DNA of 64,000 bases, from IMG/VR virus record IMGVR_UViG_3300016476_000468, positions 103,913-167,912 of that record; one strand, given 5' to 3'. Position numbers and translations under genes: made by a program. The stretch is from a virus. Taxonomy: Duplodnaviria; Heunggongvirae; Uroviricota; Caudoviricetes. Shown one piece after another: positions 5,694-62,438 of this stretch; the first letter of the stretch is position 1; the number at the start of each line of letters is the position of its first letter. The notes under the pieces are model-generated. The model ran no database searches. It saw nothing but the letters and a program-made list of their open reading frames with translations, and was not told the DNA's origin.

Positions 5694-6281
5694 ATGGCAA
5701 ATATTGCTGATTTTAAGTCACAAATGATTGGGGGCGGTGCTCGCCCTAATCAGTTCCGTGTTGAACTGACTTTCCCATCATTCGTAACTCTTGGAGCAGT
5801 AGCTGGTCAGCGTGCACAGTTCTTGTGTAAAGCTGCTCAACTACCAGCGTCTACAATTGAGACTATCCCTGTACTATTCAAGGGTCGTCCAGTTAACTTC
5901 GCTGGTGAACGCACTTTCGCTCCATGGACTGTTACGATCTATAACGATACCACTTTCGGTATCCGTAACGCTCTTGAGCAGTGGCAATCTGGTATCCAGA
6001 ACTATGACACTACTTCTGGACGCACAAACCCTACTGACTACCAAGTAGACTTGCAAGTTCACCAACTAGATCGTTCTGGCGCTATCATCAAATCTTATAA
6101 GTTTGTTGATGCATTCCCAACTAGCATCTCTGCTATCGGTTTGGATTATGAACAACAGAATGCGATCGAACAATTCGATGTAGAGTTTACATACAACTTC
6201 TTTACATCTGGCACTGGAGCTTCTTCTGGATTTGGAGTTAATGTTTCTATTGATACACCAGTTGGCTCTATTCCTCTATAA
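5694..6281 (+). CDS. gp19: tail tube protein gp19-like
   Basis: Synteny after sheath; size; late ATAAATA box upstream (5665-5672). Confidence 0.8.
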   Translation: MANIADFKSQMIGGGARPNQFRVELTFPSFVTLGAVAGQRAQFLCKAAQLPASTIETIPVLFKGRPVNFAGERTFAPWTVTIYNDTTFGIRNALEQWQSGIQNYDTTSGRTNPTDYQVDLQVHQLDRSGAIIKSYKFVDAFPTSISAIGLDYEQQNAIEQFDVEFTYNFFTSGTGASSGFGVNVSIDTPVGSIPL

Positions 6282-6300
6282 TTGATAGAAGGATTATATA

Positions 6301-7887: not shown

Positions 7888-8276
7888 TGAATGAAAATAT
7901 CAAAGACCTAGTTAATGCTATGTTAGCCAAAGATGCTAACGGCACACAAGCTGCTTTTCAAGCTGCAATGGCAGAAAAGATCTCTGCTAAACTAGATGAT
8001 ATGCGTCAAAACATGGCGCAAAATATGTTTAAAACTGCTGCAGAAGTACCAGCAGCGGATCCTGTTGTAGAAGAAGAATTAAATTTAGAAGTAATTGATA
8101 CTCTTACTGAAGAACAACTAGATGAAGTTTTAACTAAAAAGACTCCAGCAAGCAATGTTATCAGTGACTTTGTTCACAGCGATGATCCACGATTTGAAGG
8201 TAAGTCTAAAAAAGAACGCATCAAGATGGCTCTTGGTGCATACTACGCTAAACACCCAGAGAAATCTAAGAAGTAA
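7884..8276 (+). CDS. small acidic protein, possible prohead core protein
   Basis: Position between portal and prohead protease as gp67/gp68 in T4. Confidence 0.3.
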   Translation: MMNENIKDLVNAMLAKDANGTQAAFQAAMAEKISAKLDDMRQNMAQNMFKTAAEVPAADPVVEEELNLEVIDTLTEEQLDEVLTKKTPASNVISDFVHSDDPRFEGKSKKERIKMALGAYYAKHPEKSKK

Positions 8277-8821
8277 TGTATTACAAAGATTTTACCGATA
8301 CAATTAAAAGACCTGGTGTTGTTGAAAGCATCAGAAGTTATCTTCAACTTATTGAAAAGTTAGAGGATGGTAAAGTCTACATCAATGGAATTGAAACTAA
8401 GTTTGATAGTTTGGAAGAAGCTAGACAGTACGTTAAACAAGATTATATTTCACATCAATTAGAAGAACAAGTATCAAAAGACTTATACGAAGAAATATCT
8501 GACAGTAAAGTAGCTAGCATTATTAGAGAATATTACGAAATCAAAGTCACAGATACGCTTATCGAAAGTTATATTAAACTAGCTTCTTCCAACATTTTTA
8601 CAATAGATCCTGTGGTTCAAAGAATTCGTCAGTTGAACAGGCTAGACACTATCGTTGAAGGTAAGATTCACTATGTGCTTGAGGACGATTCTATCATCGC
8701 AATCACAGAAGAAACGCAAGATCGCCTAAATAAATTATTGTCGAATCAAACAGAGATTATCGAGTACATGAGAGAAAGCAGCAGCAATTTCCTTCATGTT
8801 CTTGAACAACTAGAGGAATAA
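8276..8821 (+). CDS. hypothetical protein (possible prohead core protein)
   Basis: ORF, synteny. Confidence 0.3.
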   Translation: MYYKDFTDTIKRPGVVESIRSYLQLIEKLEDGKVYINGIETKFDSLEEARQYVKQDYISHQLEEQVSKDLYEEISDSKVASIIREYYEIKVTDTLIESYIKLASSNIFTIDPVVQRIRQLNRLDTIVEGKIHYVLEDDSIIAITEETQDRLNKLLSNQTEIIEYMRESSSNFLHVLEQLEE

Positions 8822-9288: not shown

Positions 9289-9942
9289 ATGAAACTAATC
9301 AGAGAAGATATTCAAGAAGCCAAGCTGATCGTTGAAGAAAAGCTAGGTAAAGGAAAACAATACTTCATCGAAGGCGTTTTCCTGCAATCCAACATTCAAA
9401 ACCGTAACAAGCGTATGTACCCAGAGCATGTTATGGATAAAGAAGTTGCACGTTATATGCAAGAACAAGTTAAAAATAACCGTGCATATGGCGAACTTGG
9501 TCACCCAGACACTCCATCTATTAACTTGGATCGTGTTTCCCACCTTATCGTAGACCTACGCAAAGAAGGTACAAACTATATCGGTAAGGCAAAGATTTTA
9601 GAAACTCCAATGGGTAATATCGCTCGTGGTCTATTAGATGGCGGCGCAAACCTTGGTGTTTCTTCAAGAGCACTTGGATCTCTTCAACTAAACAAAGAAG
9701 GGGTCAATGTTGTTCAGGATGACTTTATGTTGTCCACTGCTGCGGACATCGTAGCAGACCCATCTGCCCCAGACGCTTTCGTTCGTGGCATCATGGAAAA
9801 CAAAGAGTGGATCTATATTGATGGAAAGTTTGTGGAGCAACACATTGAAGCTACTAAGGCTTCTATTAGAAAGGCTTCTACTCGCCAATTAGAGGAAGCT
9901 AAATTGCACGCTTTCCAAAGTTTTCTGAGTAAAATCAGATAA
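9289..9942 (+). CDS. gp21: prohead core protease gp21-like
   Basis: YGELGHPDTPSINLDRVSH and GGANLGVSSRALGSL match T4 gp21 motifs. Confidence 0.85.
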   Translation: MKLIREDIQEAKLIVEEKLGKGKQYFIEGVFLQSNIQNRNKRMYPEHVMDKEVARYMQEQVKNNRAYGELGHPDTPSINLDRVSHLIVDLRKEGTNYIGKAKILETPMGNIARGLLDGGANLGVSSRALGSLQLNKEGVNVVQDDFMLSTAADIVADPSAPDAFVRGIMENKEWIYIDGKFVEQHIEATKASIRKASTRQLEEAKLHAFQSFLSKIR

Positions 9943-9988: not shown

Positions 9989-11005
9989 ATGTCTATCGAA
10001 CAAAAAATTGCACAGATTCTTGCTGAATCAAAGCAACAAAAACTAGATGAAGCTAAACTTGCTGGCGCAGAAACAGGTAGCAAAGATGTTGCTGCTGGCG
10101 CTTCTGGTGAGAAGGCTGTCATCCGTCAAGGCAATGCAGTACCTAATGGTGGTGAAACACCTAATCCAGATTCTGCACGCAATAATGTTGACGATGAAAA
10201 AGAAGCAGAGAAGGCACCACAAGGATCTCAGAATCCTAAGAATGGTGACCAGTCTCCAATTCGTCAAGGCGACGCTGTTAAGGGTATGAAAGAAGATATG
10301 GATGCCCTATTCAATGGCGAAGAGCTAACAGAAGATTTTAAAACTAAAGCTGCTACAATTTTTGAAGCAGCAGTTATGGCTCGTGTAAACGCTGAAGTTG
10401 CACGAATCGAAGAAGAATTCGAAGCTAAACTTGCTGAGCAAGTCGAGCAGAATACTCAGGGAATTGTTGAACAAGTTGATGGATATCTTGGCTATATTGC
10501 CGAGCAGTGGATTGCACAGAATGAATTAGCCCTTGAGCGTGGTATCAAGTCTGAAATCTTAGAAGGTTTCATTACTGGCTTGAAAGGTCTCTTTGAAGAG
10601 CACTATATTGATATTCCAGAAGAAAAGTACGACGTACTTGGCGAAATGGAAGAAACAATTTCTGCTTTGGAAGCTAAGCTAAACGAACAAGTTGAAGCCA
10701 ACGTTGAGTTGACTAAGACTTTGGCAGAAGCAAAGCGCCAAGAGATCGTTAAGTCTATCAGTGAAGGTTTGACTGACTCTGAGTCTGAAAAGTTCATGAG
10801 TCTAGTTGAAGAACTTTCTTATGAAGATGCAGAAACATATGAGACTAAAGTAAAAACTATCCGTGAGAATTATTTCTCTGGTAAGAAGACTGAAGTAGCA
10901 TCTGTTGTTACTGACGCTCCAGTAGAAGTGTTGACTGAGGAAAAGAAGGTAGCCCCTGTTGATCCAAAAATGTCTGCATATCTATCAGCACTCAACAAAA
11001 TCTAA
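9989..11005 (+). CDS. gp22: prohead scaffold protein gp22-like (acidic coiled coil)
   Basis: Position; E/K/A-rich coiled-coil composition; ATAAATA box upstream at ~9941. Confidence 0.7.
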   Translation: MSIEQKIAQILAESKQQKLDEAKLAGAETGSKDVAAGASGEKAVIRQGNAVPNGGETPNPDSARNNVDDEKEAEKAPQGSQNPKNGDQSPIRQGDAVKGMKEDMDALFNGEELTEDFKTKAATIFEAAVMARVNAEVARIEEEFEAKLAEQVEQNTQGIVEQVDGYLGYIAEQWIAQNELALERGIKSEILEGFITGLKGLFEEHYIDIPEEKYDVLGEMEETISALEAKLNEQVEANVELTKTLAEAKRQEIVKSISEGLTDSESEKFMSLVEELSYEDAETYETKVKTIRENYFSGKKTEVASVVTDAPVEVLTEEKKVAPVDPKMSAYLSALNKI

Positions 11006-11021: not shown

Positions 11022-12329
11022 ATGACAACTCGTCAAGCTCTAATGGAAAAATGGGCACCAGTGTTGAATCACGAAGGTGCACCAGCTTTCAAAGATCAGT
11101 ACCGTAAAGAGGTTACTGCCGTTCTTTTGGAAAACCAAGAACGTGAAATGCAAAAGCAAGCTGAAGCACTTTTCGAAGCTGCTCCAACTAACAACGGTGG
11201 TACTGGCATCTCCATGGGTGGTGCAGGTACTAACGCTCAGATGGCTGGTTTCGACCCAGTTCTAATCTCTTTGGTTCGTCGTGCAATGCCACAATTGATC
11301 GCTTACGATATCGCTGGCGTTCAACCAATGACTCAACCAACTGGCTTGATCTTCGCAATGAAGTCTCGCTACGCTACTCAAAACGGTACTGAAGCGTTGT
11401 TCAACGAAGCAGATACTGACTTCTCTGGTACTGGCACTCACGCTGGTTCTTCTTGGGATCCAGCAAACAACACTACTGGTACTGGTATGGCTACAGCTGC
11501 TGCTGAACGCCTAGGTGCTGGCGGTCAAGGTGACGGTGCTTTCGGTGAGATGGCATTCTCTATCGAAAAGACTTCTGTAACTGCAAAGACTCGTGCTTTG
11601 AAGGCTGAATACTCTATCGAATTGGCACAAGACTTGAAATCTGTTCACGGTCTTGACGCTGAAGGCGAATTGAGCAACATCCTTTCTACAGAAATCCTTT
11701 CTGAAATCAACCGTGAAGTTGTTCGTACTGTTTACACTGCTGCTAAAGCAGGTGCACAAGTTGGTACTGCTACTGCTGGTACTTTTGACCTAGACGTTGA
11801 CTCTAACGGTCGTTGGTCTGTTGAAAAGTTCAAGGGTCTAATGTTCCAAATCGAACGTGAAGCCAATGCTATCGGTCAACAAACTCGTCGTGGTCGTGGT
11901 AACATCATCATCACTTCTGCAGACGTTGCTTCTGCATTGGCGATGGCTGGTGTCCTTGACTACTCTTCTGCCCTAAACGGCAAGAACAACCTGACTGTAG
12001 ATGATACTTCTACTACTTTCGCTGGTGTTCTAAACGGCAAGTACAAAGTGTATGTTGACCCATATACTGCTAACGTATCTGCTAACCAATTCTTCGTTGT
12101 TGGTTACAAGGGTACTTCTGCTTTCGACGCTGGTCTGTTCTACTGCCCATACGTTCCTCTACAAATGGTTCGTGCAGTTGATCCAAACAGCTTCCAACCA
12201 AAGATTGGTTTCAAGACTCGTTACGGTCTAGTTGCTAACCCATTCACTACACTAGATGCTGGTGCTGATGGTCTTGCTTCTGGCAATAACTACTACTACC
12301 GTAAGGTTCGTGTTACTAACCTAATGTAA
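11022..12329 (+). CDS. gp23: major capsid protein gp23-like
   Basis: Position after scaffold; NIIITSADVASALAMAG motif; size 435 aa. Confidence 0.85.
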   Translation: MTTRQALMEKWAPVLNHEGAPAFKDQYRKEVTAVLLENQEREMQKQAEALFEAAPTNNGGTGISMGGAGTNAQMAGFDPVLISLVRRAMPQLIAYDIAGVQPMTQPTGLIFAMKSRYATQNGTEALFNEADTDFSGTGTHAGSSWDPANNTTGTGMATAAAERLGAGGQGDGAFGEMAFSIEKTSVTAKTRALKAEYSIELAQDLKSVHGLDAEGELSNILSTEILSEINREVVRTVYTAAKAGAQVGTATAGTFDLDVDSNGRWSVEKFKGLMFQIEREANAIGQQTRRGRGNIIITSADVASALAMAGVLDYSSALNGKNNLTVDDTSTTFAGVLNGKYKVYVDPYTANVSANQFFVVGYKGTSAFDAGLFYCPYVPLQMVRAVDPNSFQPKIGFKTRYGLVANPFTTLDAGADGLASGNNYYYRKVRVTNLM

Positions 12330-21071: not shown

Positions 21072-21128
21072 AAATTTCCTATATAAAACAGGGTGGGTGG
21101 TCTGCCCTACGATTCTAAGGAGTTTAGA

Positions 21129-22103
21129 ATGAAAACTGGTATATTCATTGGGCGATTCCAGCCTGTTCATCACGGTCATATCCATGCTATTGGTGTGGCT
21201 GCATCCCAAGTACAGAAACTGTACATCCTCATTGGTTCCGCTAACCAATGCCGTAGTATCAAGAATCCTTGGACGTATGAAGAACGCAAGCAAATGCTTT
21301 CGTTGAAACTTCACGCTGAGCGTATCACGAACTATGAAATTATTCCCCTTAACGATTATCGTTATAGCGATACGCAATGGATGTCTGACGTCCGCGCTAC
21401 TATCGAACACTTCAATATGGGTGCACCGATTCTGTTCGGTCACATCAAAGAAGGTAATGATTACCTGAAGTGGTTCCCTGAATTAAAATTTAAGAGCATT
21501 GAGGCTCAATATAATATCGATGCAACTCACATTCGTGAGGAGATGTTTAAGAATGACGACCCTCTGATGCCAGAAACTGTCCGAGGCGACTATGCTTTCT
21601 ACCAAAAAGAAAAACAACTCTTCAAAGATTATCCATTCCCCGAAACTCTCAACTTCAATTGCTCTGATGCGATCCTCGAATGCCAAGGACATGTGCTTCT
21701 CATCCAACGCAAGTTCAGTCCAGGTCGAGGTGCTTGGGCACTTCCAGGAGGTTTTCGCAACCAGCGTGAAACATTTCTTGACTGTGCCATCCGAGAGTTG
21801 ATTGAAGAAACTAACGTGCGAGTCCCTGAGAAAGTTCTCCGTGGCTCTATCGTGAAAACCGAATTGTTCGACAGTCCTCGTCGTTCGTTCGGTATTCCCC
21901 GAAACACCATGGCTGTGTACATGCGTATTAGTCCGAATCCTGACTACTCGCTGCCTCGTGCTAATGGTGCTGACGATGCTGCTCTGTGCAAGTGGGTGCC
22001 ACTTACTGACGCACTGAACAACATCGAGATGTATGATGACCACAAGGACATCATTTCTAAAGTAACAGGTGTTATGTCAATGCCTGCATTTGCAAAACTG
22101 TAA
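21129..22103 (+). CDS. natV: bifunctional NMN adenylyltransferase / Nudix hydrolase (NadM-Nudix, natV-like)
   Basis: GRFQPVHHGH (HxGH NTase motif), Nudix box GGFRNQRETFLDCAIRELIEETN; AAGGAG RBS. Confidence 0.75.
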   Translation: MKTGIFIGRFQPVHHGHIHAIGVAASQVQKLYILIGSANQCRSIKNPWTYEERKQMLSLKLHAERITNYEIIPLNDYRYSDTQWMSDVRATIEHFNMGAPILFGHIKEGNDYLKWFPELKFKSIEAQYNIDATHIREEMFKNDDPLMPETVRGDYAFYQKEKQLFKDYPFPETLNFNCSDAILECQGHVLLIQRKFSPGRGAWALPGGFRNQRETFLDCAIRELIEETNVRVPEKVLRGSIVKTELFDSPRRSFGIPRNTMAVYMRISPNPDYSLPRANGADDAALCKWVPLTDALNNIEMYDDHKDIISKVTGVMSMPAFAKL

Positions 22104-22119
22104 ACGATTAGGATCGTGT

Positions 22120-22413
22120 ATGAACGAACGAATTCAAGAACTTGCTCGTCAGTCTGGTGCATATCATAAAGATGACGACGGTGAAGAAACTAAGATTGCT
22201 GTTCTAATAGGTAAGGAAGTAGAAAAGTTCGCCGAGTTGATTGTTCGGGAATGTATGGAACTTAATAGAAAACAATCCTGGGATCTTACTGGTGTGATTA
22301 TTGATGTTGAAGAAAGCACTGGTTTTGACGAAGTGTGTATGAATACTGTAAAACGAGTAAAGAATTATCTAGCAGGCGATGACTTGCTAAAACATTTTGG
22401 AGTTGAAGAATGA
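22120..22413 (+). CDS. HFGVEE-family small protein, member 1
   Basis: MNERIQELARQSGAY...KFAELIVRECMEL...KHFGVEE. Confidence 0.6.
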   Translation: MNERIQELARQSGAYHKDDDGEETKIAVLIGKEVEKFAELIVRECMELNRKQSWDLTGVIIDVEESTGFDEVCMNTVKRVKNYLAGDDLLKHFGVEE

Positions 22414-22607
22414 TTTTGAAGTATTTTAGAGAACAAATTGAAGGTGGTGCTACAGATAACTTTTTCTATGGCACTGAAATGAATGGTGAAGTTCGCATTG
22501 AGCGTCATCGTGGTAGTCTTGACTCATTCCCCACTGATCTAAAATTTACGAGAATGGTAGGAAGTGTTCCGTTCTTTACTCAAGAACATTTCGGAGTTGA
22601 AGAATGA
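22410..22607 (+). CDS. HFGVEE-family small protein, member 2 (divergent N-terminus)
   Basis: Ends ...QEHFGVEE; ATGA junction. Confidence 0.5.
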   Translation: MILKYFREQIEGGATDNFFYGTEMNGEVRIERHRGSLDSFPTDLKFTRMVGSVPFFTQEHFGVEE

Positions 22608-22831
22608 ACGCTAAAAGAGGTCTACCCCTGGAAAGCATTGCGACAGACCCTGTAAGAATGCGAGCGAGATGTGAAGCATTGGTAATTGCTATGGTAGGCA
22701 AAGATATGGCTGAGAAATGGTGGAATGGCCCAAACAAGGCATTTTGTGATGACACACCAGAACAGATTTATAGTGTAGCACCCAGTGCGGTGTATGCTTA
22801 TCTAATGCGATCAGCCGAAGGAGAATGGTAA
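22604..22831 (+). CDS. hypothetical small protein within array
   Basis: ORF with ATGA junction. Confidence 0.45.
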   Translation: MNAKRGLPLESIATDPVRMRARCEALVIAMVGKDMAEKWWNGPNKAFCDDTPEQIYSVAPSAVYAYLMRSAEGEW

Positions 22832-23004
22832 TGAACCAACGTAAAGTTCACTACATTGATGTGAGCAAAATGTCCGAAAAAGAACTATGTGAAACATTGA
22901 ACATTCCATATGTTCCGTGGTATTGTGATAGTATCTTTTGGGCATTGGCACTGGTTTTTACTGCGCCCAGTATCCTGATTATTACTTTGGAGATATTCAA
23001 ATGA
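22825..23004 (+). CDS. small hydrophobic (membrane) protein, 59 aa
   Basis: C-terminal FWALALVFTAPSILIITL TM segment; ATGA junction into next gene. Confidence 0.35.
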   Translation: MVMNQRKVHYIDVSKMSEKELCETLNIPYVPWYCDSIFWALALVFTAPSILIITLEIFK

Positions 23005-23204
23005 ACAAACGAATTAAAGAACTGCAGTTTCAAGCTGCCGCACAAGTTAATCCGTTGTTGGAAGGTTCTGAGTGGCAACAAGTGTTTGTTGAGAATTTTG
23101 CCGAGTTGATTATCAAAGAAACACTACAGGTTGCTCGTGCTGGTATAGAGTTCGGCGACGGTATGGAAGATGCTGTTTACAAATATTTCGGAGTTGAAGA
23201 ATGA
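23001..23204 (+). CDS. HFGVEE-family small protein, member 3
   Basis: MNKRIKELQFQAAAQ...FAELIIKETLQ...YKYFGVEE. Confidence 0.6.
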   Translation: MNKRIKELQFQAAAQVNPLLEGSEWQQVFVENFAELIIKETLQVARAGIEFGDGMEDAVYKYFGVEE

Positions 23205-23446
23205 ACGAACGAATTAGAGAACTTGCTAGAGAGGCTGGGTTGCCTACATACAACCCCGAAGGTATTCCAACTAAATTAGAAAAGTTCGCCGAGTTGATTG
23301 TTAGGGAATGTATTCGCATTGGCCAAGAAACCAGCAAAGATATTTTCAAAATGTCAAAGAAAGAAGGTGACATTTTTGAATATGAATCACACGGTGCAGA
23401 ACAAGTAGTTGATAATATCAAAGAGCATTTTGGAGTTGAAAAATGA
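23201..23446 (+). CDS. HFGVEE-family small protein, member 4
   Basis: MNERIRELAREAGLP...KFAELIVRECIRIG...KEHFGVEK. Confidence 0.6.
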   Translation: MNERIRELAREAGLPTYNPEGIPTKLEKFAELIVRECIRIGQETSKDIFKMSKKEGDIFEYESHGAEQVVDNIKEHFGVEK

Positions 23447-23541
23447 GCATAAGCGAAACTATCGTCATACTTGCTATGATTTCACTGTTTGCCTTGGTTG
23501 CAGTGGGTGTATATAAGTTGATTGTAAAAGGTTTTCTATGA
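23443..23541 (+). CDS. 32-aa hydrophobic peptide
   Basis: MSISETIVILAMISLFALVAVGVYKLIVKGFL; ATGA overlaps at both ends. Confidence 0.3.
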   Translation: MSISETIVILAMISLFALVAVGVYKLIVKGFL

Positions 23542-23765
23542 ACGAACGAATTAAAGAACTTGCCCAACAGGCTGGATGCAGTATTGATGGAATGGGCTAT
23601 GGCGAAGGTAATGTAGAAAAGTTCGCCGAGTTGATTATTCGGGAATGTATTGGTTGTTGTGAACAAGTTATCAGTGATCCTGTTCCTGAATCCGTGGATA
23701 GTTGGTTAAATGGTGGCGAACAATGTATCCAAGAGATTAAACAGCATTTTGGAGTTGAAAAATGA
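23538..23765 (+). CDS. HFGVEE-family small protein, member 5
   Basis: MNERIKELAQQAGCS...KFAELIIRECIGCC...KQHFGVEK. Confidence 0.6.
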   Translation: MNERIKELAQQAGCSIDGMGYGEGNVEKFAELIIRECIGCCEQVISDPVPESVDSWLNGGEQCIQEIKQHFGVEK

Positions 23766-24013
23766 AAGTTTCCAATCTACGCAAAATCACAGACCCAACT
23801 ACATTTGAACCAAGTGTAGTAGTAGATGTAGAAATCCCAAGAATGACCTTATACGAACTAACTCTAATGAAAGAGGACATTCGTAAAGACATTATCTACA
23901 CACTCGGAGCGGAGTTATTGGGACAGATTGTTGTTCAGATGGGTATGACTGATGAACAAAAGAAAGACCTAATCAAGGACTTGCTGGGAGTGAACAATGA
24001 CACCGAATCCTAA
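23762..24013 (+). CDS. hypothetical small protein
   Basis: ORF with ATGA junction. Confidence 0.45.
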   Translation: MKVSNLRKITDPTTFEPSVVVDVEIPRMTLYELTLMKEDIRKDIIYTLGAELLGQIVVQMGMTDEQKKDLIKDLLGVNNDTES

Positions 24014-24221
24014 AATCCGAGAACTCATTATGAGTATGGGCATTATTCCTGAAAGCGAACACTATGATATCGCTGAACGAGTTATTGAAGAATGTATGGC
24101 AATGTGTAAAACCGCTGTAGGCAACGCTGACTACAACACTGGCAGACTACATTGTTTAGAAAACATCAAAGAACACTTTGGAGTTAAACGATGGCACTTC
24201 GACAACTGCAAAAGTGCTTGA
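23997..24221 (+). CDS. HFGVEE-family small protein, member 6 (divergent)
   Basis: MTPNPKIRELIMSMG...VIEECMAMC...KEHFGVKR. Confidence 0.5.
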   Translation: MTPNPKIRELIMSMGIIPESEHYDIAERVIEECMAMCKTAVGNADYNTGRLHCLENIKEHFGVKRWHFDNCKSA

Positions 24222-24290: not shown

Positions 24291-25685
24291 ATGAGCATTT
24301 CAAAATCAATCATTCTAAACACCGACAGCTATAAAGTTAGCATGTTCAAACAGTATCCTGCAGGTACGACTGGTGTTTATTCCTATATTGAATCACGTGG
24401 TGGACGCTATGATCGCACTGTGATGTTCGGTCTCCAAGCCTTCATTAAGGAGTATCTACTTGATCCAATTACCCAAGCCGACATTGATATTGCTGATGAG
24501 ATACTCACTACTCACGGAGAACCCTTCAACCGAGAAGGATGGGAATATATCCTACGTGTCCACGATGGTTATCTCCCAGTCGTTATTCGTGCAGTTCCTG
24601 AGGGTACAGTGGTTCCTGTTAAAAATGTTTTGGCTACAATTGAAAACACGGATCCTGAATGCTATTGGTTGACTACTTATCTGGAAACTGCTCTTCTGCG
24701 TGCAGTCTGGTATCCAACCACTGTGGCTACTCAAAGCTACACCATTCGCAAAGTGATCATCGAATATCTGGAGAAAACTGGTGACCCTAGCCTTATTGAT
24801 TTCAAACTGCACGACTTCGGTGCTCGTGGCGTTTCTTCTATGGAAAGCGCAGGAATTGGCGGTGCTGCCCACTTGGTTAACTTCATGGGTACTGATACCA
24901 TCACTGGTCTTCTGTATGCTCGTGAGTATTACAATGCTGGTATTGCTGCTTTCTCTATCCCTGCCGCAGAACACAGTACCATCACCAGCTGGGGTCGTGA
25001 CAACGAAGTAAAAGCCTATGACAACATGCTTACTCAGTTTGCTAAGCCTGGTAGTATCGTTGCAGTGGTCAGCGATAGCTATGATATCTTCAACGCTGCA
25101 TCTAAACTCTGGGGTGAAGAACTCAAGCAGAAAGTTATTGACAGTGGCGCTACTGTTGTCATCCGTCCAGACTCTGGCGATCCTGATACTGTTTGCCGTA
25201 AACTTGTAGAAATTCTCGGTCAAAAGTTCGGCTACACTGTCAACGATAAAGGATACAAGGTTCTGAACAACGTCCGCATTATCCAAGGTGACGGTGTCAA
25301 TGAACAAACTATCCGCACCATCCTAGGTGGCTTTGCCGCATACGGTTGGAGTGCAGATAACATTGCATTCGGTATGGGTGGTGCTCTGCTCCAACAAGTC
25401 GATCGTGACACCCAGAAGTTCGCAATGAAGTGTTCTGCTGCTTTGATCAACGGTGAGTGGGTTGATGTGCAGAAAGATCCTGTCACTGACTCTGGTAAGA
25501 AGTCTAAGGCTGGTCGTGTGCAACTTTGGGAAAGTGGTGGTGAGTTTATCTCTTCTGTCAATCGTCCCAATACTTGGACTGATCGTGGAACTGCTTGGGC
25601 ACCTGTGCTGCAAGAAGTATTCCGTGACGGTAAACTTGTAACCGAATACACCTTCGAGCAAGTCCGAGCCAACGCTAAAAAGTAA
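24291..25685 (+). CDS. nadV: nicotinamide phosphoribosyltransferase (NAMPT / NadV)
   Basis: 464 aa; NAMPT-like motifs (HDFGARG, GTDT, SIPAAEHST); pairs with NMNAT. Confidence 0.8.
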   Translation: MSISKSIILNTDSYKVSMFKQYPAGTTGVYSYIESRGGRYDRTVMFGLQAFIKEYLLDPITQADIDIADEILTTHGEPFNREGWEYILRVHDGYLPVVIRAVPEGTVVPVKNVLATIENTDPECYWLTTYLETALLRAVWYPTTVATQSYTIRKVIIEYLEKTGDPSLIDFKLHDFGARGVSSMESAGIGGAAHLVNFMGTDTITGLLYAREYYNAGIAAFSIPAAEHSTITSWGRDNEVKAYDNMLTQFAKPGSIVAVVSDSYDIFNAASKLWGEELKQKVIDSGATVVIRPDSGDPDTVCRKLVEILGQKFGYTVNDKGYKVLNNVRIIQGDGVNEQTIRTILGGFAAYGWSADNIAFGMGGALLQQVDRDTQKFAMKCSAALINGEWVDVQKDPVTDSGKKSKAGRVQLWESGGEFISSVNRPNTWTDRGTAWAPVLQEVFRDGKLVTEYTFEQVRANAKK

Positions 25686-55785: not shown

Positions 55786-57162
55786 ATGGCAAATTACGAC
55801 TACGGGAAAATGGCTGATACAGCCAAGCTGATCGAAGCCCATTTTAAAAAGAAGGGTATTGGTGTAGCGATCAAAACATCTCGTTACCAGACCCAAATCA
55901 AAGCAGTTGAAGTTGCTTATCCAGACAGTTTAGATAAACTGTTGAAATTGGCAGGATTAATAGCAACCATATCAGACTTGACACCAACAGAAGAAAAGTC
56001 TATCTCTGGTAAGTATAAAGCCAAACTTATAAAAATTACAACTGCTTCTGGTGGTGCCAAAAAGGGTGACATCTTTTTCTTGGTGAATACCTATACAGAA
56101 AAGGGTACTCTTAAGACTAAAGACTTAGCTCCAGATAAACTAGGGTTGACCACGGCTAGTGGATACACTTCTCTTTCTGCATTTGATAAAGCAGTTTATG
56201 ATGGTATTGAAAAACTCAAAGTCGGTTCTGAAATTAAGACAGCGTTGGTTCAGTTGTATAAATCTGTAGCAGAAAACAAAACTAAAACTGACAGTGTGCC
56301 TATGAATGCCGCAGCTAAGAAAGCTATGGCTGCAGTGAAGCCTCAAGACAAACAAGCAATAGGTAAGGATTTTGGTGAGATCCTTTCTCTTCGTTGGTAT
56401 CTAACTCAACCACACGGCGCAGGATGGACTAAGTTTGGTTTCTCTGTAATCAGTAACGAAGCCTTGATTGACTTTTACGTTGACCGTAAAGTAGGAAACA
56501 AAACTATCCGTTCTGATGTATCTGCCAAGTTCGAAGCTGGGGCTGCTCCATCCATTGGCGCGATCGTAGAAAATCTGGACAAAGTGTATAAGACCCCCAA
56601 AGCAGAAGAGCTAAAGGCGATTAATGTTCTTAAGGCTCTTGCGGGCAAAGACGATAACACTTCTACTAAGATTCTTAAAGCATTCGAGACTCTTAAACTA
56701 CCTGCTTACAACAAACTAAAGTCTATTGTAGGTAAGCAAAACTTCACCATCTTAGACGTTTCTACCTCTATTCAAAAGATCGCAACTGCTAGTAAAACTC
56801 CAGCTAATCGTTTGAAGATGTTCCAGACTGAGTATGGTCCAATCTACGAAGAACTAGGCAAGACTGCTTCCAAGGACTCTCTGGATATCGTTTTTGCTGG
56901 GGCTACATACAAGAAATACTACTCTCTAGTTTTGGCTCCTATGGGGTATGCTCTTGTTGACTATATGAACAAGAACAAGATCTACCAAGAGATACTAAAC
57001 AATATCAGTCGAGAGATGAAGACCGAGCAGGTCTACCTAAACTTCACTGGAGATAAGCTAAGTTTCGAGAAGAAGCTATTCTCTAATGCTGAGTTTAAGT
57101 TCGCTTACGGAGCGAATGCCAAGGACTCTGATAATACAGGTATCAAGTTCTCTATGAAATAA
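55786..57162 (+). CDS. hypothetical protein (458 aa)
   Basis: ORF preceded by TGTATAAT box flanked by inverted repeat AGTTAGTT/AACTAACT. Confidence 0.45.
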   Translation: MANYDYGKMADTAKLIEAHFKKKGIGVAIKTSRYQTQIKAVEVAYPDSLDKLLKLAGLIATISDLTPTEEKSISGKYKAKLIKITTASGGAKKGDIFFLVNTYTEKGTLKTKDLAPDKLGLTTASGYTSLSAFDKAVYDGIEKLKVGSEIKTALVQLYKSVAENKTKTDSVPMNAAAKKAMAAVKPQDKQAIGKDFGEILSLRWYLTQPHGAGWTKFGFSVISNEALIDFYVDRKVGNKTIRSDVSAKFEAGAAPSIGAIVENLDKVYKTPKAEELKAINVLKALAGKDDNTSTKILKAFETLKLPAYNKLKSIVGKQNFTILDVSTSIQKIATASKTPANRLKMFQTEYGPIYEELGKTASKDSLDIVFAGATYKKYYSLVLAPMGYALVDYMNKNKIYQEILNNISREMKTEQVYLNFTGDKLSFEKKLFSNAEFKFAYGANAKDSDNTGIKFSMK

Positions 57163-57207
57163 GACTGTTCCTAAATAATTACATAATTACTTTATAGATG
57201 GATTCCA

Positions 57208-58056
57208 ATGAAAGATTACAAACAACTCTTAAGAGAATTACCGTCCAGAACCGTCGTTTTAGCTTGTGGGAGATTTAACCCTCCTACATTAGCCCACGAA
57301 ATGTTGGTTAAGACAGTCAAAAAACTGGCTGAGTCTAAAAACGCAGACCACGTAATCTATGCATCCAATATAAGCGATGCTAAAAAGAATCCATTAGTAG
57401 TAGAAAAGAAACTTCAGTATATTGAACTGGTGTTTCCTAAGACCAACTTTGTAGAGTCTGGGGATAATATCGGCGATGTTATCAAGAAATTGAAGGAGAG
57501 TTATAAGAATATTATCGTTGTTACTAGCGGCGACAAAGTTCAATCATTGAAAAAGTATATGGTTGAAACTGTTTCAATTGGTGACAAGGATCCTGATAGC
57601 GAAGACTCTGTCAGAAGTCTGGCAGCAAAAGGTTTATACGAAGAGTTTAAGAAGAATCTTCCTACCTCTATCCGTGACCTTGACAGTCGTCGCTTGATGA
57701 ATGACATTCGTATTGGTTCTGGTTTAGAACCAATCAAAGAACAAATTAACTTGGTGAAAGACGACTTGAGAGAACAATACTTTAGAGGTGAGATCTTCAA
57801 TGTAGGCGACATCGTTGAGAACGGTGGTGTTGAGTATGAGATCGTAAAGCGTGGGTCAAATCATTTGCTTTTGAAAGACGAAGCAGGTAAACTTGTCTCT
57901 AAGTGGATCCAGGAAGTCAAACAAGTAAAAAAGTCTAAGTTTAAATTTAAAGATGGTCAGAAAGCAATTCCAGCTGAGCATGGCACAACGCCTCTTAGTG
58001 GTAAACCATTCGATCCATTTTTCAAAGAGTCATTTAAAGAGTGGAGAAACAAGTAA
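57208..58056 (+). CDS. CTS-bearing predicted internal head protein; HIGH-superfamily nucleotidyltransferase-like (GRFNPPTLAHE)
   Basis: N-terminus MKDYKQLLRE ~ T4 CTS MKTYQEFIAE; paralogue of 60841. Confidence 0.45.
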   Translation: MKDYKQLLRELPSRTVVLACGRFNPPTLAHEMLVKTVKKLAESKNADHVIYASNISDAKKNPLVVEKKLQYIELVFPKTNFVESGDNIGDVIKKLKESYKNIIVVTSGDKVQSLKKYMVETVSIGDKDPDSEDSVRSLAAKGLYEEFKKNLPTSIRDLDSRRLMNDIRIGSGLEPIKEQINLVKDDLREQYFRGEIFNVGDIVENGGVEYEIVKRGSNHLLLKDEAGKLVSKWIQEVKQVKKSKFKFKDGQKAIPAEHGTTPLSGKPFDPFFKESFKEWRNK

Positions 58057-58493
58057 TGGATGAATTAGTGACATCTCTTAGAATTGCGCTTGCGAATACA
58101 TTTGTGATGTATTTCAAAGTGCATCAGTTTCATTGGAACGTAGAAGGTGATGACTTCCCTCAATGGCATGGTTTCTTAGGAGACCTGTATGAAGATGTTT
58201 ATGGTGCTGTTGACCCACTTGCTGAAAACATTCGTAAGTTGGATGCATATGCTCCACGTAGCTTAGAAGAGATGTGGAATCATAAAACTATCGCCGAATC
58301 TACTGGCGATGTTAAAGACATTAAGTCTATTCTAAATGAAATTCAAAAAGCTAACCTAGAAGTTCTTGCAAGTCTCAAGAAGGCTTACGATCTAGGTGAA
58401 GAAAATAAAACCTACGGCTTGTGCAATTTCTTGGCAGATCGTATTGATACGCACGAGAAGCACAGCTGGATGTTAAAGGCGTCAATGAAATGA
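58056..58493 (+). CDS. dps: Dps / ferritin-like protein
   Basis: ALANTFVMYFKVHQFHWNVEGDDFPQWHGFLGDLYEDV four-helix ferritin-like signature typical of Dps. Confidence 0.65.
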   Translation: MDELVTSLRIALANTFVMYFKVHQFHWNVEGDDFPQWHGFLGDLYEDVYGAVDPLAENIRKLDAYAPRSLEEMWNHKTIAESTGDVKDIKSILNEIQKANLEVLASLKKAYDLGEENKTYGLCNFLADRIDTHEKHSWMLKASMK

Positions 58494-59665
58494 AATCATT
58501 TATCGACTTTCTAAAAGAAGAAGCTGAAGCAGAAGGTGCTAAGCTAAAACACATTCACCATGCTGAAGACCGTCCACTGATGCATGGCAAAGAAGGTTTC
58601 GAGCATACGCATGGTGCATTGACTCAAGCCCATGAGCACATGAAGGCTGGTAAAAAGTCTAGTGGTCTAACGATGAAGTACGATGGTTCTCCATCTGTAG
58701 TTTACGGTCACCACCCAGAAACTAAAAAGTTCTTTGTTGCTTCCAAATCTGCGTTCAATAAGAACCCTAAGTTAAATTACTCCCACGAAGACATCGAAAA
58801 GAACCATGGACATGCTCCAGGTCTTGTGACAAAACTAAAAGCTGCATTGGATCACCTGCCTAAAGTTGCACCTAAGAAGGGTGTCTATCAAGGTGATATT
58901 ATGCACAGTGGTGATGTTGAACATAAAAAAGATGGTGTTTCTTTCAAGCCAAACACTATCACTTATACCGCTAAAGGTGAGCAAGCCAAAGCGCACAAAG
59001 AGGCTAAACTAGGTGTTGTTACTCATACAAAGTATGAAGGTAAGAACATGGCTTCTATGAAAGCTACACCACATGTTAGCGACAAAGAGTTTGGTACTCA
59101 CAAAGATGTAGCGCACCACACTGCCGAGCACGACACTTCTAAGATTCACTATCCAGAAAGTGCTCACAAAGAATTCCAAAGTCATATGGATGCTGCTAAA
59201 AAGATCCACGACACCCACGGTAAAGACATGTACAAGGCTACAGAAAAACATCGTGGTGAAAATACTCATATGACTACTTACATCAACAGTACTGTTAGAA
59301 ATGATGAGAAGCCATCTGCTGAAGGTTTCCAGAAACATATTACAGCGCAAGGTGAGAAAGCTGCGGCTAAAGTCAAGACAGAAAAGTCTCAAGCAGCAAA
59401 ACGTGCCGAGCACGCTGAACACGTATCTCATGTCGAGGCAAACAAAGAACACTATAATAATTTGTTTGCTATGCATCACCACTTACAACAAGCCAAGAAT
59501 ACTCTAGTTAAACACCTAGAGACTCATGAGGGTGGTTATGAGCATCACATCAATGGTACAAAATCCAAGCCAGAAGGTTTCGTTGTCAATCACAAAGATG
59601 AACCAACCAAGTTGGTAAACCGTTCTGAGTTCGCAAAAGCTAACTTACTAAAGGTAAAGAAATGA
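58490..59665 (+). CDS. CTS-bearing His-rich protein with RNA-ligase-1-like nucleotidyltransferase motifs
   Basis: MKSFIDFLKE N-terminus; TMKYDGSPSVVYG...FFVASKSA ~ T4 Rnl1 LTKEDGSLVSTY...LFKSKGS; C-terminal EGFVVNHKD (motif IV-like). Confidence 0.4.
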   Translation: MKSFIDFLKEEAEAEGAKLKHIHHAEDRPLMHGKEGFEHTHGALTQAHEHMKAGKKSSGLTMKYDGSPSVVYGHHPETKKFFVASKSAFNKNPKLNYSHEDIEKNHGHAPGLVTKLKAALDHLPKVAPKKGVYQGDIMHSGDVEHKKDGVSFKPNTITYTAKGEQAKAHKEAKLGVVTHTKYEGKNMASMKATPHVSDKEFGTHKDVAHHTAEHDTSKIHYPESAHKEFQSHMDAAKKIHDTHGKDMYKATEKHRGENTHMTTYINSTVRNDEKPSAEGFQKHITAQGEKAAAKVKTEKSQAAKRAEHAEHVSHVEANKEHYNNLFAMHHHLQQAKNTLVKHLETHEGGYEHHINGTKSKPEGFVVNHKDEPTKLVNRSEFAKANLLKVKK

Positions 59666-59901
59666 TCTCATTTAAAGAATATATTACAGAAGGTCTAGCT
59701 GACGATATCCTAGCAGTAGCAAAGAAAGCTGGTATTAATGCTAAGAAAGCTCCTCCACTAGAGGATCGTAAGAAAGCAACTGCTAAGTTAATCAAGCACC
59801 GTGCAAGAGAAGCTAAGAGAAATCCTCCACCACCAAGAGAGATGCCACCACGTAAGACTGGCTTTGGCTCTGGTGCTGAAGACGACACTAAAGGAACTTA
59901 A
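59662..59901 (+). CDS. CTS-bearing small basic protein (79 aa)
   Basis: MISFKEYITE N-terminus; K/R/P-rich. Confidence 0.4.
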   Translation: MISFKEYITEGLADDILAVAKKAGINAKKAPPLEDRKKATAKLIKHRAREAKRNPPPPREMPPRKTGFGSGAEDDTKGT

Positions 59902-60840
59902 ATGAAATCATTTACAGATTACCTAAACGAAGGCGAGCGTGGTTTGTGGGATAACATCCATGCCAAGCGTAAGCGTATTGCTGCTGGATCTGGTGAGCGC
60001 ATGCGTAAACCTGGAAGCAAAGGTGCGCCAACTGCAGCTGCACTAAAGGCATCACAAAACGAAAGTGTAGTGGAACAAGCTCCAGTCGCTCCTACTTTAG
60101 ATAAAAAATATATCAAGGGTACGCCAGAGCACAAAGCATATAAAGCAACTAAGAAGCCGATCAATGGTCACCCAACCAATGTTAAAGAAGAGTTATCTGC
60201 TGATGAACAATTTGATTTAATAGAACAGATGGCTCAAGAAATCTCTGAAGAACTACAGATGGATCTGGAGCAAGTTTGGGAAGAGTTGGACGAGTTTAAC
60301 GATAACGAACTTGTAGAAGCCTGCAACTGCTGGACAGGTTACAAGCGTAAGCCTGGAACTAAACCATGTGAAGAAGGTTCTTGTGTAAAAGAAGAGTCTG
60401 AACTTGATGAGGGTATGAAACAAAATCTAAGAAAGTATGTTCCTGGATATGCCAAGCGTGAAATTGATAAAAAGATGGATGCTGGAAAATTTGGTAAAGA
60501 TGATGTAGCCAAGGATGCTAATTACTATCGCTATAAAAACATACAAGACAAGATAAAAAAAGAAGAAGTTGAACTAGACGAAGCCGCAGTTGATGCTAAA
60601 GGTTACAAGTCTTCTACTGGTGGCTTGACGCAAAAAGGTCGTGATGCTTACAATCGTAAAGAAGGCTCTAACCTAAAGGCTCCAGTAACTACACCACCTT
60701 CTAAATTAAAGAAGGGTAGCAAGGCATACAATCGTCGCAAGTCTTTCTGCGCACGTATGAGTGGCGTAGAAGGTCCAATGCGCAAACCAAATGGTGAACC
60801 AACACGCAAGGCGTTGGCACTAAGAAAGTGGAACTGCTAA
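59902..60840 (+). CDS. CTS-bearing K/E-rich predicted internal protein
   Basis: MKSFTDYLNE N-terminus; disordered basic/acidic composition. Confidence 0.45.
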   Translation: MKSFTDYLNEGERGLWDNIHAKRKRIAAGSGERMRKPGSKGAPTAAALKASQNESVVEQAPVAPTLDKKYIKGTPEHKAYKATKKPINGHPTNVKEELSADEQFDLIEQMAQEISEELQMDLEQVWEELDEFNDNELVEACNCWTGYKRKPGTKPCEEGSCVKEESELDEGMKQNLRKYVPGYAKREIDKKMDAGKFGKDDVAKDANYYRYKNIQDKIKKEEVELDEAAVDAKGYKSSTGGLTQKGRDAYNRKEGSNLKAPVTTPPSKLKKGSKAYNRRKSFCARMSGVEGPMRKPNGEPTRKALALRKWNC

Positions 60841-61454
60841 TGTTATCCTTTCTATCATTCCTAAAAGAAGCCAAGGCTGAGAAACATGCAGTCATGGCTT
60901 TTGGTCGTATGAACCCTCCGACTGCTGGTCACGAAGAAGTGGTTAAGAAGATGCATGATGTAGCCAAAGAGCATGGCGCCGAGCATCACTTGGTTCTTTC
61001 TCATAGCCAAGATGCTAAGAAGAACCCACTTCCAGCTGATAAAAAAGTTGAGCATGCTAAGAATGCATTCCCTGGAACTAATGTTCGTGCAGCATCTAAA
61101 GAAAAGCCAACTATCTTACACCATGCAGCAGACTTACACAAAGCTGGTGTGAAACACTTACACGTTGTAGCAGGTTCTGATCGCCATCAGGCAATGCATG
61201 AGTTGTTGCATAAATACAATGACGGTAAAGAACACGCTCATGGTTCTTATAAGTTCAAATCTATTACGTTACATTCATCTGGCGAACGTGATCCAGACTC
61301 TGAAGGTACTTCTGGTGTTTCTGGAACTAAGATGCGTGAGCATGCTGGTTCTGGTAACAAAGAAGAATTCCATAAGAACTTACCTTCTAAGATGAAGCCT
61401 GAGCACAAAGATGCATTATACCACGACTTACGTAAACATATGGGGCACGAATGA
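60841..61454 (+). CDS. CTS-bearing His-rich HIGH-superfamily nucleotidyltransferase-like protein
   Basis: MLSFLSFLKE N-terminus; GRMNPPTAGHEEV ~ PPAT/NMNAT GTFDPITNGH motif; His-rich tail. Confidence 0.45.
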
Positions 61455-62119
61455 AACAAACAAACGAAGGTACTATCCAACCAAATGGAACAGATAAGAT
61501 CGAGCTTGGTGTTCCCGATGTAGCAACTAAAAAGAAAACGGATAAAGAAATGAAAGATCAACAAAACGAATCTTGGACATTTGACACCGCTGCTATGGCC
61601 AAACAAGAACTAGCAGACGCTAAGAACAAACAACACCGTAAGCGTGGTAAGGTTGCTAACCTTCTGCGTAAACTAGGTATGAAAGAAGAGTTCGAAGGAA
61701 ACCCAATGCAAGAAGAATTAAAAGGTGGTCAAGTTAATCTTGACAAGAACAAAAACGGTAAGTTGGATAAGCAAGACTTCAAACTTCTTCGTAAAAAACT
61801 TCAAGAAGCAAAGATGGGCAAACCTGTCGATGTTGATAAGGTTCATGCGGCTGGCGAGAAACCACACGAAGAAAAGTGGGAAGACGCTAAGAAAGTCAAG
61901 AAAGAATCCTACACTGCTGAAGAACTTCTACAAGCATTGAAAGAAGGACTATGGCCAGGTACTCCAGAACACACTGCTAAATTTGGCGACAAGTACAAAC
62001 AGCAACAAGGTGGTGGCGCTGGTATGAAAAAAGGAACTCGTTATGGTGGCTCTGCACAAAAGCCAGAAAAAGAAGATGACAACGATGCTGACGACAAGCC
62101 AGCAAAGAAGAATAAATAA
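61451..62119 (+). CDS. K/E-rich disordered protein
   Basis: ORF, low complexity. Confidence 0.4.
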   Translation: MKQTNEGTIQPNGTDKIELGVPDVATKKKTDKEMKDQQNESWTFDTAAMAKQELADAKNKQHRKRGKVANLLRKLGMKEEFEGNPMQEELKGGQVNLDKNKNGKLDKQDFKLLRKKLQEAKMGKPVDVDKVHAAGEKPHEEKWEDAKKVKKESYTAEELLQALKEGLWPGTPEHTAKFGDKYKQQQGGGAGMKKGTRYGGSAQKPEKEDDNDADDKPAKKNK

Positions 62120-62147: not shown

Positions 62148-62438
62148 ATGGCACTATGGGGAAATACAGATAACGCAGAAAGCAAGCCAAAGTTTGTTAG
62201 CCAAGATGCTAATGGTACTATTGGTGGCACTGCTGGCGTAGCAATCACTTACGGCGTTGACGCTGTAGAAGAAAACGTAGCTTCTAACAAAGCCAAGGGT
62301 ATGCAGCACGCAGGATGGGTTCGTCGTGTTACATACACTGATGCACAAGGTAATGTTCGCAACAAGACTGAAACTCTAGTTGCTATGGGTTCTATGACAG
62401 GTGACGCAGCAGACGACGCAGTTGTTGCTGACGCTTAA
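62148..62438 (+). CDS. hypothetical protein
   Basis: ORF with GGAG RBS. Confidence 0.45.
   Translation: MALWGNTDNAESKPKFVSQDANGTIGGTAGVAITYGVDAVEENVASNKAKGMQHAGWVRRVTYTDAQGNVRNKTETLVAMGSMTGDAADDAVVADA

Follow-up and report, generated by a model that had tools for sequence, protein, structure and literature searches.

The internal proteins IPI, IPII and IPIII of bacteriophage T4 share a ten-residue N-terminal tag, the capsid targeting sequence (CTS), at the head of basic proteins that are otherwise unrelated. In IPIII, encapsidation requires only the first ten residues (PMC9026906, summarising Mullaney and Black 1996). Residues 4 and 7 are the main determinants of targeting and residues 8 and 10 those of processing, and an Asp at position 10 blocks cleavage and leaves targeting intact (PMC9026906). 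The T4 ADP-ribosylation enzyme Alt is also carried in the head, processed by the protease gp21 and injected with the DNA, and its N-terminus (MELITELFDE) follows a similar hydrophobic/Glu10 pattern. Here, we describe a comparable arrangement in a 64,000-nucleotide stretch (hereafter the window; positions 103,913 to 167,912) of the viral record IMGVR_UViG_3300016476_000468, in which five clustered open reading frames (ORFs) share the strict start M-x-x-[FY]-x-x-[FYL]-[LI]-x-E. This decapeptide is most likely a T4-type CTS, that is, a removable N-terminal propeptide, and the five products are probably CTS-tagged internal head proteins that would be processed by a gp21 homologue of the same phage and delivered with its DNA. 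The window, almost all of whose genes lie on the plus strand, derives from a marine or freshwater T4-like myovirus. Its major capsid protein (MCP; 11022..12329) shares ~62–64% identity with its counterparts in cyanophages P-TIM40, P-RSM6 and S-WAM1, Methylophilales phage Melnitz and Pelagibacter phage HTVC008M. The phage is a distant Kyanoviridae-like relative of T4, with an MCP ~45% identical to gp23. A megablast search of GenBank phages gave no DNA-level match to the 55–63 kb region of the window, where the following tagged genes are located.

57208..58056, plus strand: tagged HIGH-motif nucleotidyltransferase 1, 282 amino acids (aa), tag MKDYKQLLRE at 57208–57237, with a small C-terminal beta-rich domain

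58490..59665, plus strand: DUF6267 protein of 391 aa, in which the tag MKSFIDFLKE precedes an acidic linker and a folded body; a nucleotidyltransferase of the ligase fold that contains a helical insertion; 11% His

59662..59901, plus strand: tagged basic protein, 79 aa, tag MISFKEYITE; mature isoelectric point (pI) 10.2

59902..60840, plus strand: tagged modular protein, 312 aa, tag MKSFTDYLNE; its modules are a basic N-module, a stretch of acidic residues, a knuckle of the form CxCW...C..C and, at the C-terminus, a DUF6321 domain

60840..61454, plus strand: tagged HIGH-motif nucleotidyltransferase 2, 204 aa, tag MLSFLSFLKE, 12% His

The five N-termini are exactly as quoted in an earlier note on this DNA, although that note placed the last start at 60841, which is out of frame; the ATG lies at 60840 and overlaps the preceding stop codon. 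The tagged genes are translationally coupled through ATGA-type overlaps, and all five products are basic (pI 9.0–9.9). They had also been called consecutive; they are indeed clustered, but an untagged Dps-like gene separates the first from the second.

The T4 CTS is characterised by an aromatic residue at positions 4 and 7, Leu or Ile at position 8 and Glu at position 10, and the five window ORFs carry Phe or Tyr at position 4, Phe, Tyr or Leu at position 7 and [LI]-x-E at positions 8–10. The positions conserved here (4, 7, 8 and 10) are exactly the functional positions of the T4 CTS, which supports the reading of the decapeptide as a CTS. Moreover, 223 tagged ORFs give the consensus MKSFKQFLKE, which agrees with the T4 sequence MKTYQEFIAE, by identity or conservative substitution, at eight of the ten positions. 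The specificity of the motif was assessed with a relaxed pattern (M-x-x-[FYW]-x-x-[FYLIMW]-[ILVM]-x-E) applied on both strands to any ATG, GTG or TTG with 30 or more open codons after it. Throughout the 64 kb window this pattern matched the five starts and no others, and as a positive control it matched only IPII and IPIII, both MKTYQEFIAE, on the two strands of 41 kb of T4. Across the window and 80 related IMG/VR contigs, the first ATGs of plus-strand ORFs matched in 195 of 1591 cases (12%), compared with 23 of 6602 later in-frame ATGs (0.35%) and none of 1453 minus-strand ATGs. Together, these counts indicate that the motif is real, specific to the N-terminus and far above chance, with MDWYADFVCE, MQAYGPYVHE and one 37-aa ORF as likely false positives among the matches.

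The tag is also retained over considerable evolutionary distance. Metagenomic homologues were retrieved by whole-protein similarity (62–95% identity), 120 for the DUF6267 protein and 120 for the 204-aa nucleotidyltransferase at 60840, and the strict motif was present in 115 and 108 of these, respectively, the remainder being mostly near-variants of the tag (e.g. shorter by one residue). In alignments built on the protein bodies of the two families, M1, F4 and E10 were invariant or nearly so and positions 2, 3, 5, 6 and 9 were variable. Tag position 7 is aromatic or Leu, and position 8 is Leu, Ile or Val. The linker after the tag varies as well; in DUF6267 proteins it is acidic and of varying length, and is followed by the conserved KLKHIHHAEDRP. 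Conserved tag positions are encoded by synonymous codons (TTT/TTC; TTA/CTA/CTC; TCA/TCG/TCT/AGT) and the pairwise nucleotide identity among the five window tags is just 16–24 of 30, indicating that selection acts on the peptide and not on the DNA or mRNA. In AlphaFold2 (AF2) models, the tag appears as a disordered segment or a low-confidence helix.

Portability of the tag is equally evident. In the 80 related contigs it heads at least 15 families (counted with a 60%-coverage criterion) that have no similarity to one another beyond the tag, and within the window alone the tagged proteins span four different families or folds. These families include DUF6267, two paralogue types of nucleotidyltransferase (some proteins reaching 995 aa), DUF6321/Cys-knuckle proteins, Gly-rich peptides of 63–77 aa, one family of 208 aa and several of 320–465 aa without a Pfam match; Pfam scans of ten more tagged cargo families gave almost nothing apart from DUFs. 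An alternative single-linkage clustering of the tagged cargo was discarded, as fusions and low-complexity regions merged 190 proteins. Elsewhere, Melnitz encodes four tagged genes in the syntenic cluster and Stenotrophomonas phage DLP6 a tagged DUF6267 protein, and in cyanophage nucleotidyltransferases 75–100 residues lie between the tag and the catalytic domain. Even the two window nucleotidyltransferases, which are paralogues with 30% identity, align only after the tag (from residue 14).

A shorter start, F-x-x-L-x-E, was observed on further genes of the syntenic cyanophage clusters (MLSFKALSE, MLSFKELQE and MDSKTFNSLSE; loci L088 7548–8297 in S-RIM2, L089 20845–21333 in S-SM1 and L086 2218–3189, which is S-SCSM1 ORF89), one of which is an annotated virion protein. 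Such starts possibly represent the signal in a second register.

A CTS of the T4 type depends on a prohead protease and a scaffolding core, and as in T4 both a gp21-family protease and a gp22 scaffold are encoded by the same phage.

9289..9942, plus strand: gp21-type prohead serine protease, the presumed processing enzyme (Peptidase_S77, 1.2e-39; PHROG 207 head maturation protease, 8e-78)

9989..11005, plus strand: scaffolding core protein of the gp22 type, onto which the tag presumably docks (PHROG 237 head scaffolding protein, 2e-83)

8276..8821, plus strand: prohead core protein candidate at the gp68 position, between portal and protease

11022..12329, plus strand: major capsid protein with candidate gp21 site ALFE|A, 45% identical to T4 gp23

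The protease, which the earlier note had correctly recognised as a gp21 homologue, is 37% identical to T4 gp21, conserves the catalytic H85 and S140 of the T4 enzyme and carries an N-terminal DIQE motif, while the core protein candidate gave no family match in profile scans. Sites of the form [LI]xE were more frequent than expected in the scaffold (18 versus 6.8 expected; T4 gp22, 16 versus 5.7), in the core protein candidate (10 versus 5.0, P = 0.01; T4 gp68, 5 versus 1.9) and in the protease itself (6 versus 3.0; T4 gp21, 7 versus 2.5). In addition, the MCP region aligned to the T4 cleavage site FLTE|A contains ALFE-AAPT. This T4-like enrichment, together with the ALFE|A site of the MCP, suggests that the specificity of the protease, on which the tag depends, is conserved.

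Proteomic studies of related cyanophages have repeatedly found homologues of the two window nucleotidyltransferases in purified virions. For example, the 'citidylyltransferase' T4-GC190 was detected by mass spectrometry in S-SM1 virions (Sullivan et al. 2010; PMC3037559), and its N-terminus is MKKFSAFLNE. In S-SCSM1, ORF91 ('NMNAT'), which begins MKSFLQFLKE, was found in virions by mass spectrometry and is annotated as a virion protein; its neighbours ORF89, 90, 92 and 93 are virion proteins too (PMC9602691). SSZBM1_140 and SSZBM1_139 were detected in the same way in S-SZBM1 virions (PMC9146016), and the former begins with MRFRQFIIE, a variant of the tag that is shorter by one residue. S-CREM2 virions contained ORF154, a cytidylyltransferase by annotation alone, along with ORF155–156 (PMC10665884). 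The nucleotidyltransferases of S-SCSM1, S-SZBM1 and S-RIM2 are homologous to both 57208 and 60840, and the S-RIM2 copy also carries the tag. Furthermore, the untagged S-PM2 homologue, in which DUF6267 is fused to the nucleotidyltransferase, was reported as undetected in virions, whereas the tagged S-SM1 enzyme was detected (PMC3037559), a suggestive natural contrast between tag and virion detection that is confounded by differences in method sensitivity. The tag probably explains why relatives of the two enzymes recur in purified cyanophage particles. The cyanophage virion papers cited here report the association and propose no targeting signal, and a full-text search combining 'capsid targeting sequence' and 'cyanophage' returned a T4 review alone.

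By analogy with T4, the tagged proteins would be made late in infection together with the head genes, and the tag, a short helix at the N-terminus that bears aromatic residues at positions 4 and 7, would dock onto the gp22/gp68-type scaffolding core, so that the docked proteins become enclosed as the gp23 shell assembles. The gp21-type protease (9289..9942) would then degrade the scaffold at its many [LI]xE sites and cut the tag after Glu10, at the [LI]-x-E of residues 8–10, releasing mature basic proteins (pI 9–10) that would stay in the head with the DNA. Ejection into the host with the DNA is the most probable fate, as for T4 IPI–III and Alt. Scaffold docking, cleavage after Glu10, a location in the head and not the tail, and ejection are all inferred from the T4 precedent. 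The core proposal of the earlier note, a targeting propeptide like that of the T4 internal proteins on unrelated packaged proteins, is nevertheless supported by its conservation, its portability, the accompanying head machinery and the virion proteomics of relatives.

Several observations weigh against this interpretation. For this phage the evidence comes from sequence, virion detection coming from other phages, and the published proteomes are of whole virions in which head and tail were not separated and N-termini were not resolved at the peptide level. DUF6267 homologues in S-PM2, S-SZBM1, S-RIM2 and S-SM1 lack the tag, the untagged cyanophage proteins (L002, S-PM2, 5983–7758; L003; L088; L089) beginning instead at the conserved N(K/T)HLEHLED, and in S-SCSM1 and S-SZBM1 the virion also contains two neighbours that carry no tag, indicating that the tag is not the sole route into the virion. 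The residue after Glu10 (P1') is often Glu, whereas a small residue is usual at T4 sites, and the late-promoter-like motif upstream of the cluster (see below) is a consensus match only. Cleavage sites within the cargo give a mixed picture. The DUF6267 family has fewer internal [LI]xE sites than expected (0.64 versus 2.42), as does the family of the 204-aa nucleotidyltransferase (0.02 versus 0.84), but this statistic is built on related, non-independent sequences. In 60840 the sole site is that of the tag, as in T4 IPII and IPIII. The two tagged neighbours of 57208 and 59902 have the tag site only. However, 57208 and 59902 themselves are enriched in internal sites, carrying 7–8 [LI]xE sites versus 2.7–3.5 expected, and would be cut into fragments if the protease sees them, and the cyanophage cytidylyltransferases also contain several; nor are the Dps-like protein and T4 Alt depleted. 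A general rule that packaged cargo avoids internal [LI]xE sites was thus rejected, as it fails for 57208, 59902, T4 Alt and the cyanophage cytidylyltransferases.

Some of these points would also fit the main rival reading, in which the decapeptide serves as a virion-incorporation or partner-binding tag other than a gp21-cleaved head CTS, possibly retained on the mature protein. Its partner might then be a chaperone, DNA or some component of the tail, baseplate or neck. The proteomes are silent on both particle location and removal of the N-terminus (PMC9602691, PMC9146016), the untagged neighbours are virion proteins too, and P1' is often Glu. We nonetheless consider this rather improbable, given that Glu10 is invariant and residues 8–10 keep an [LI]-x-E which in T4 is needed for processing and not for targeting (PMC9026906), that the tag is so near the T4 head CTS, and that the cargo is basic, like the DNA-associated internal proteins. 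It is much less probable still that the shared 5' end acts on nucleic acid or translation, as an initiation signal or downstream box or as a short homology for modular gene shuffling of the kind proposed for the hyperplastic regions of T4-like phages, with no role in protein sorting. The ATGA-type coupling of the genes and the frequency of AAA at codon 2 are in keeping with such a role, and T4-like phages are reported to shuffle modules where gene boundaries are conserved (PMC2839356, PMC4122927). Yet it is amino-acid positions that are conserved, through synonymous codons and with just 16–24 shared nucleotides of 30 between the window tags, the pattern persists both in 62–95% identical homologues and in distant phages (T4, DLP6, Melnitz and cyanophages), and the detection of tagged homologues in virions would be left unexplained. 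Finally, that the similarity arose by chance, or by tandem paralogues inheriting one N-terminus, has a negligible likelihood. The two nucleotidyltransferases are indeed paralogues, but their alignment starts after the tag and the other cargos are unrelated to them and to each other (ligase-like, Rossmann HIGH, DUF6321 or no family), while well under 0.1 chance matches are expected per window. Explanations at the nucleic-acid level, chance and paralogy are thereby effectively excluded.

The T4 internal proteins and the tagged proteins of this phage differ in several respects. Whereas the T4 cargo consists of small, hypervariable anti-restriction proteins, the tagged proteins here are largely enzymes, 200–400 aa or more in length, which the lineage as a whole conserves and which have no sequence similarity to IPI–III; cleavage and ejection are also proposed here by analogy, the tag being known from sequence. 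They resemble Alt as potential head-carried enzymes delivered with the DNA, but the chemistry would be ligase-like and HIGH-motif nucleotidyl transfer in place of ADP-ribosylation, and there is no homology. Further counterparts are the 'cytidylyltransferase/NMNAT-like' T4-GC190 proteins of cyanophages, which are homologous to 57208 and 60840 and bear the same tag in the S-SM1, S-SCSM1 and S-RIM2 copies. The cyanophage proteins, however, have a spacer after the tag, whereas the window encodes two short paralogues.

A broader reading, which we put forward only tentatively and regard as doubtful, is that the tag is an ancient, portable label conserved throughout the T4 superfamily, in coliphages as well as in marine and freshwater myoviruses of the cyanophage- and pelagiphage-like kinds, which in the aquatic lineages loads a conserved enzyme kit into every head, to be ejected and to act before phage genes are expressed. 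This kit would comprise the ligase-fold nucleotidyltransferase and the HIGH-motif adenylyltransferases, often fused, and might, for instance, seal or alter the ends of nucleic acids or restore a nucleotide cofactor attacked by host defences. On this broader reading, a search for the N-terminal motif would reveal the full 'injectome' of uncultured T4-like phages from metagenomes. The more probable reading, that of CTS-tagged internal head proteins, describes a known kind of system in a distant and environmentally abundant lineage with conserved enzyme cargo. If that reading is true, the T4 CTS rule (targeting through positions 4 and 7, cleavage through 8 and 10) would extend far outside the T-even phages, and sequence alone could predict which proteins the abundant, uncultured myoviruses of aquatic habitats package and eject; the tagged families in the 80 related contigs are mostly of unknown function. 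It would also supply a mechanism for the repeated and unexplained finding of 'cytidylyltransferase/NMNAT-like' proteins in cyanophage proteomes from 2010 to 2023. The delivered cargo would be enzymes rather than small inhibitors, including the ligase-fold DUF6267 proteins, a family without a described function, and what a marine phage must do in the first seconds of infection would become directly testable. Lastly, the tag would be a possible protein-packaging handle for engineering T4-like phages other than coliphages.

The cargo itself includes nucleotidyltransferases, with His-rich members as the earlier note had observed (58490 and 60840). Assignment of two proteins to the HIGH superfamily is borne out, as both exceed the Pfam CTP_transf_like cut-off of 21 bits: 57208 (24.3 bits, 4e-5; PHROG cytidyltransferase 2e-33; pI 9.3) and 60840 (22.4 bits, 1.5e-4; PHROG 3041, cytidyltransferase, 1.3e-59). 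The AF2 model of 60840 (pLDDT 87) matched NadD, PPAT, NMNAT, FAD synthetase and ATP sulfurylase in Foldseek (E 5.6e-5 to 1e-3, TM ~0.5), its structural neighbours NadD, PPAT, FADS and ATP sulfurylase scoring alike, and the HIGH-type motif G22-R-M-N-P-P-T28-x-G30-H31 was invariant in the alignment of its family. Sequence searches of this family and of DUF6267 against the PDB gave nothing useful. Elsewhere in the window lie an NMNAT-Nudix fusion (21093–22103; CTP_transf_like 9e-12, NUDIX 5e-17) and an NAMPT (24291–25685; NAPRTase 1e-63, plus NAMPT_N), which by sequence form a separate, untagged NAD-salvage pair; as these functions are encoded separately, 57208 and 60840 need not act in NAD salvage.

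The DUF6267 protein at 58490 had been described as Rnl1-like. Its domain has a nucleotidyltransferase fold, and K63-Y-D-G66, E362-G363 and K374, invariant in 33 sequences, are candidate counterparts of ligase motifs I (KxDG, with the catalytic lysine), IV (EG...) and V (K). Sequence and profile comparisons did not, however, place it in the Rnl1/RNA_ligase family, and the ATP-dependent ligases (Rnl2/Rnl5, REL1 and Chlorella virus ligase) gave no sequence-level match and no significant Foldseek match; it also differs from them in a helical insertion of ~120 aa between the N-terminal part and the EGFVV strand. The fold is accordingly ligase-like rather than specifically that of Rnl1. Literature searches on DUF6267 found nothing. 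The earlier note also listed two K/E-rich disordered proteins. The 79-aa product of 59662 is basic and has no Pfam or PHROG family match, and it recurs, tag included, in the close relatives L004 and L005. The 312-aa product of 59902 is more than disordered and carries both a Cys knuckle and a DUF6321 domain (Pfam 3.9e-25), PHROG 16028 matches its residues 13–50, and in its relatives the knuckle directly follows the tag. Our guess is that the enzymes perform nucleic-acid end-joining or nucleotide-cofactor chemistry before phage gene expression, possibly in counter-defence; metal binding and RNA repair as cargo functions are speculation.

Within and around the tagged cluster, the following untagged features were identified.

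57171..57179, plus strand: late-promoter-like motif CTAAATAAT, 29 nucleotides upstream of the first tagged gene

58041/58056..58493, plus strand: untagged Dps/ferritin-like gene (Pfam Ferritin 3.6e-20; PHROG 3636, 4e-28)

61451..62119, plus strand: untagged K/E-rich basic protein (pI 9.3) with an EF-hand-like loop and weak EF-hand Pfam matches

62148..62438, plus strand: homologue of cyanophage virion structural proteins, directly downstream (PHROG 613 head protein, 2.9e-14)

The Dps-like gene (58041..58493) lies between the first and second tagged genes, and room for a Dps-like gene is kept in related contigs. It adjoins two proteins of 11–12% His, and its product contains six [LI]xE sites versus 2.0 expected. 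The K/E-rich protein at 61451..62119 probably belongs to the same module as the tagged cluster. It has in common with a tagged protein of contig L077 (11711–12478) a 33-aa EF-hand-like segment, LDKNKNGKLDxQDFKxLRK (70% identity, E 6e-11), which suggests loss of the tag or exchange of modules. BLASTP matched 62148..62438 to S-PM2d145, S-SCSM1 ORF95 and SSZBM1_136. Directly upstream of the cluster, 55786–57162 encodes a basic protein of 458 aa (pI 9.5), with CTAAATA ahead of it at 55754. Neither Pfam nor PHROG assigns the protein to a family, and BLASTP gave no match among the syntenic 390–445-aa proteins of reference cyanophages, one of which, S-SCSM1 ORF90, is an annotated virion protein. More generally, when 55786, 59662, 59902 and 61451 were compared by BLASTP with syntenic genes from six reference phages, there was no match at 1e-3.

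The motif CTAAATAAT occurs five times in the window, always on the plus strand (0.85 expected), and three occurrences lie just upstream of gene starts (12391, 37903 and 57208). Its core, CTAAATA, occurs 14 times, again all on the plus strand (motif sites include 1586, 3290, 12378, 37890 and 57171), and has been proposed as the late promoter of the T4-like phage Aeh1 (PMC1524935), and the window contains no copy of TATAAATA, the late promoter of T4. By analogy with Aeh1 we infer, as a weak lead, that motifs of the CTAAATA type may drive late expression here.

Separately, the region 22069–24221 contains tandem small paralogous ORFs of 65–114 aa, without a Pfam family match, in which each repeat is present in 3–5 copies. 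These ORFs have a common 5' end (ATGAACGAACGAATT..., encoding MNERI[KR]ELA), an internal EKFAELI and a 3' end encoding ...HFGVEE that overlaps the next ATG.

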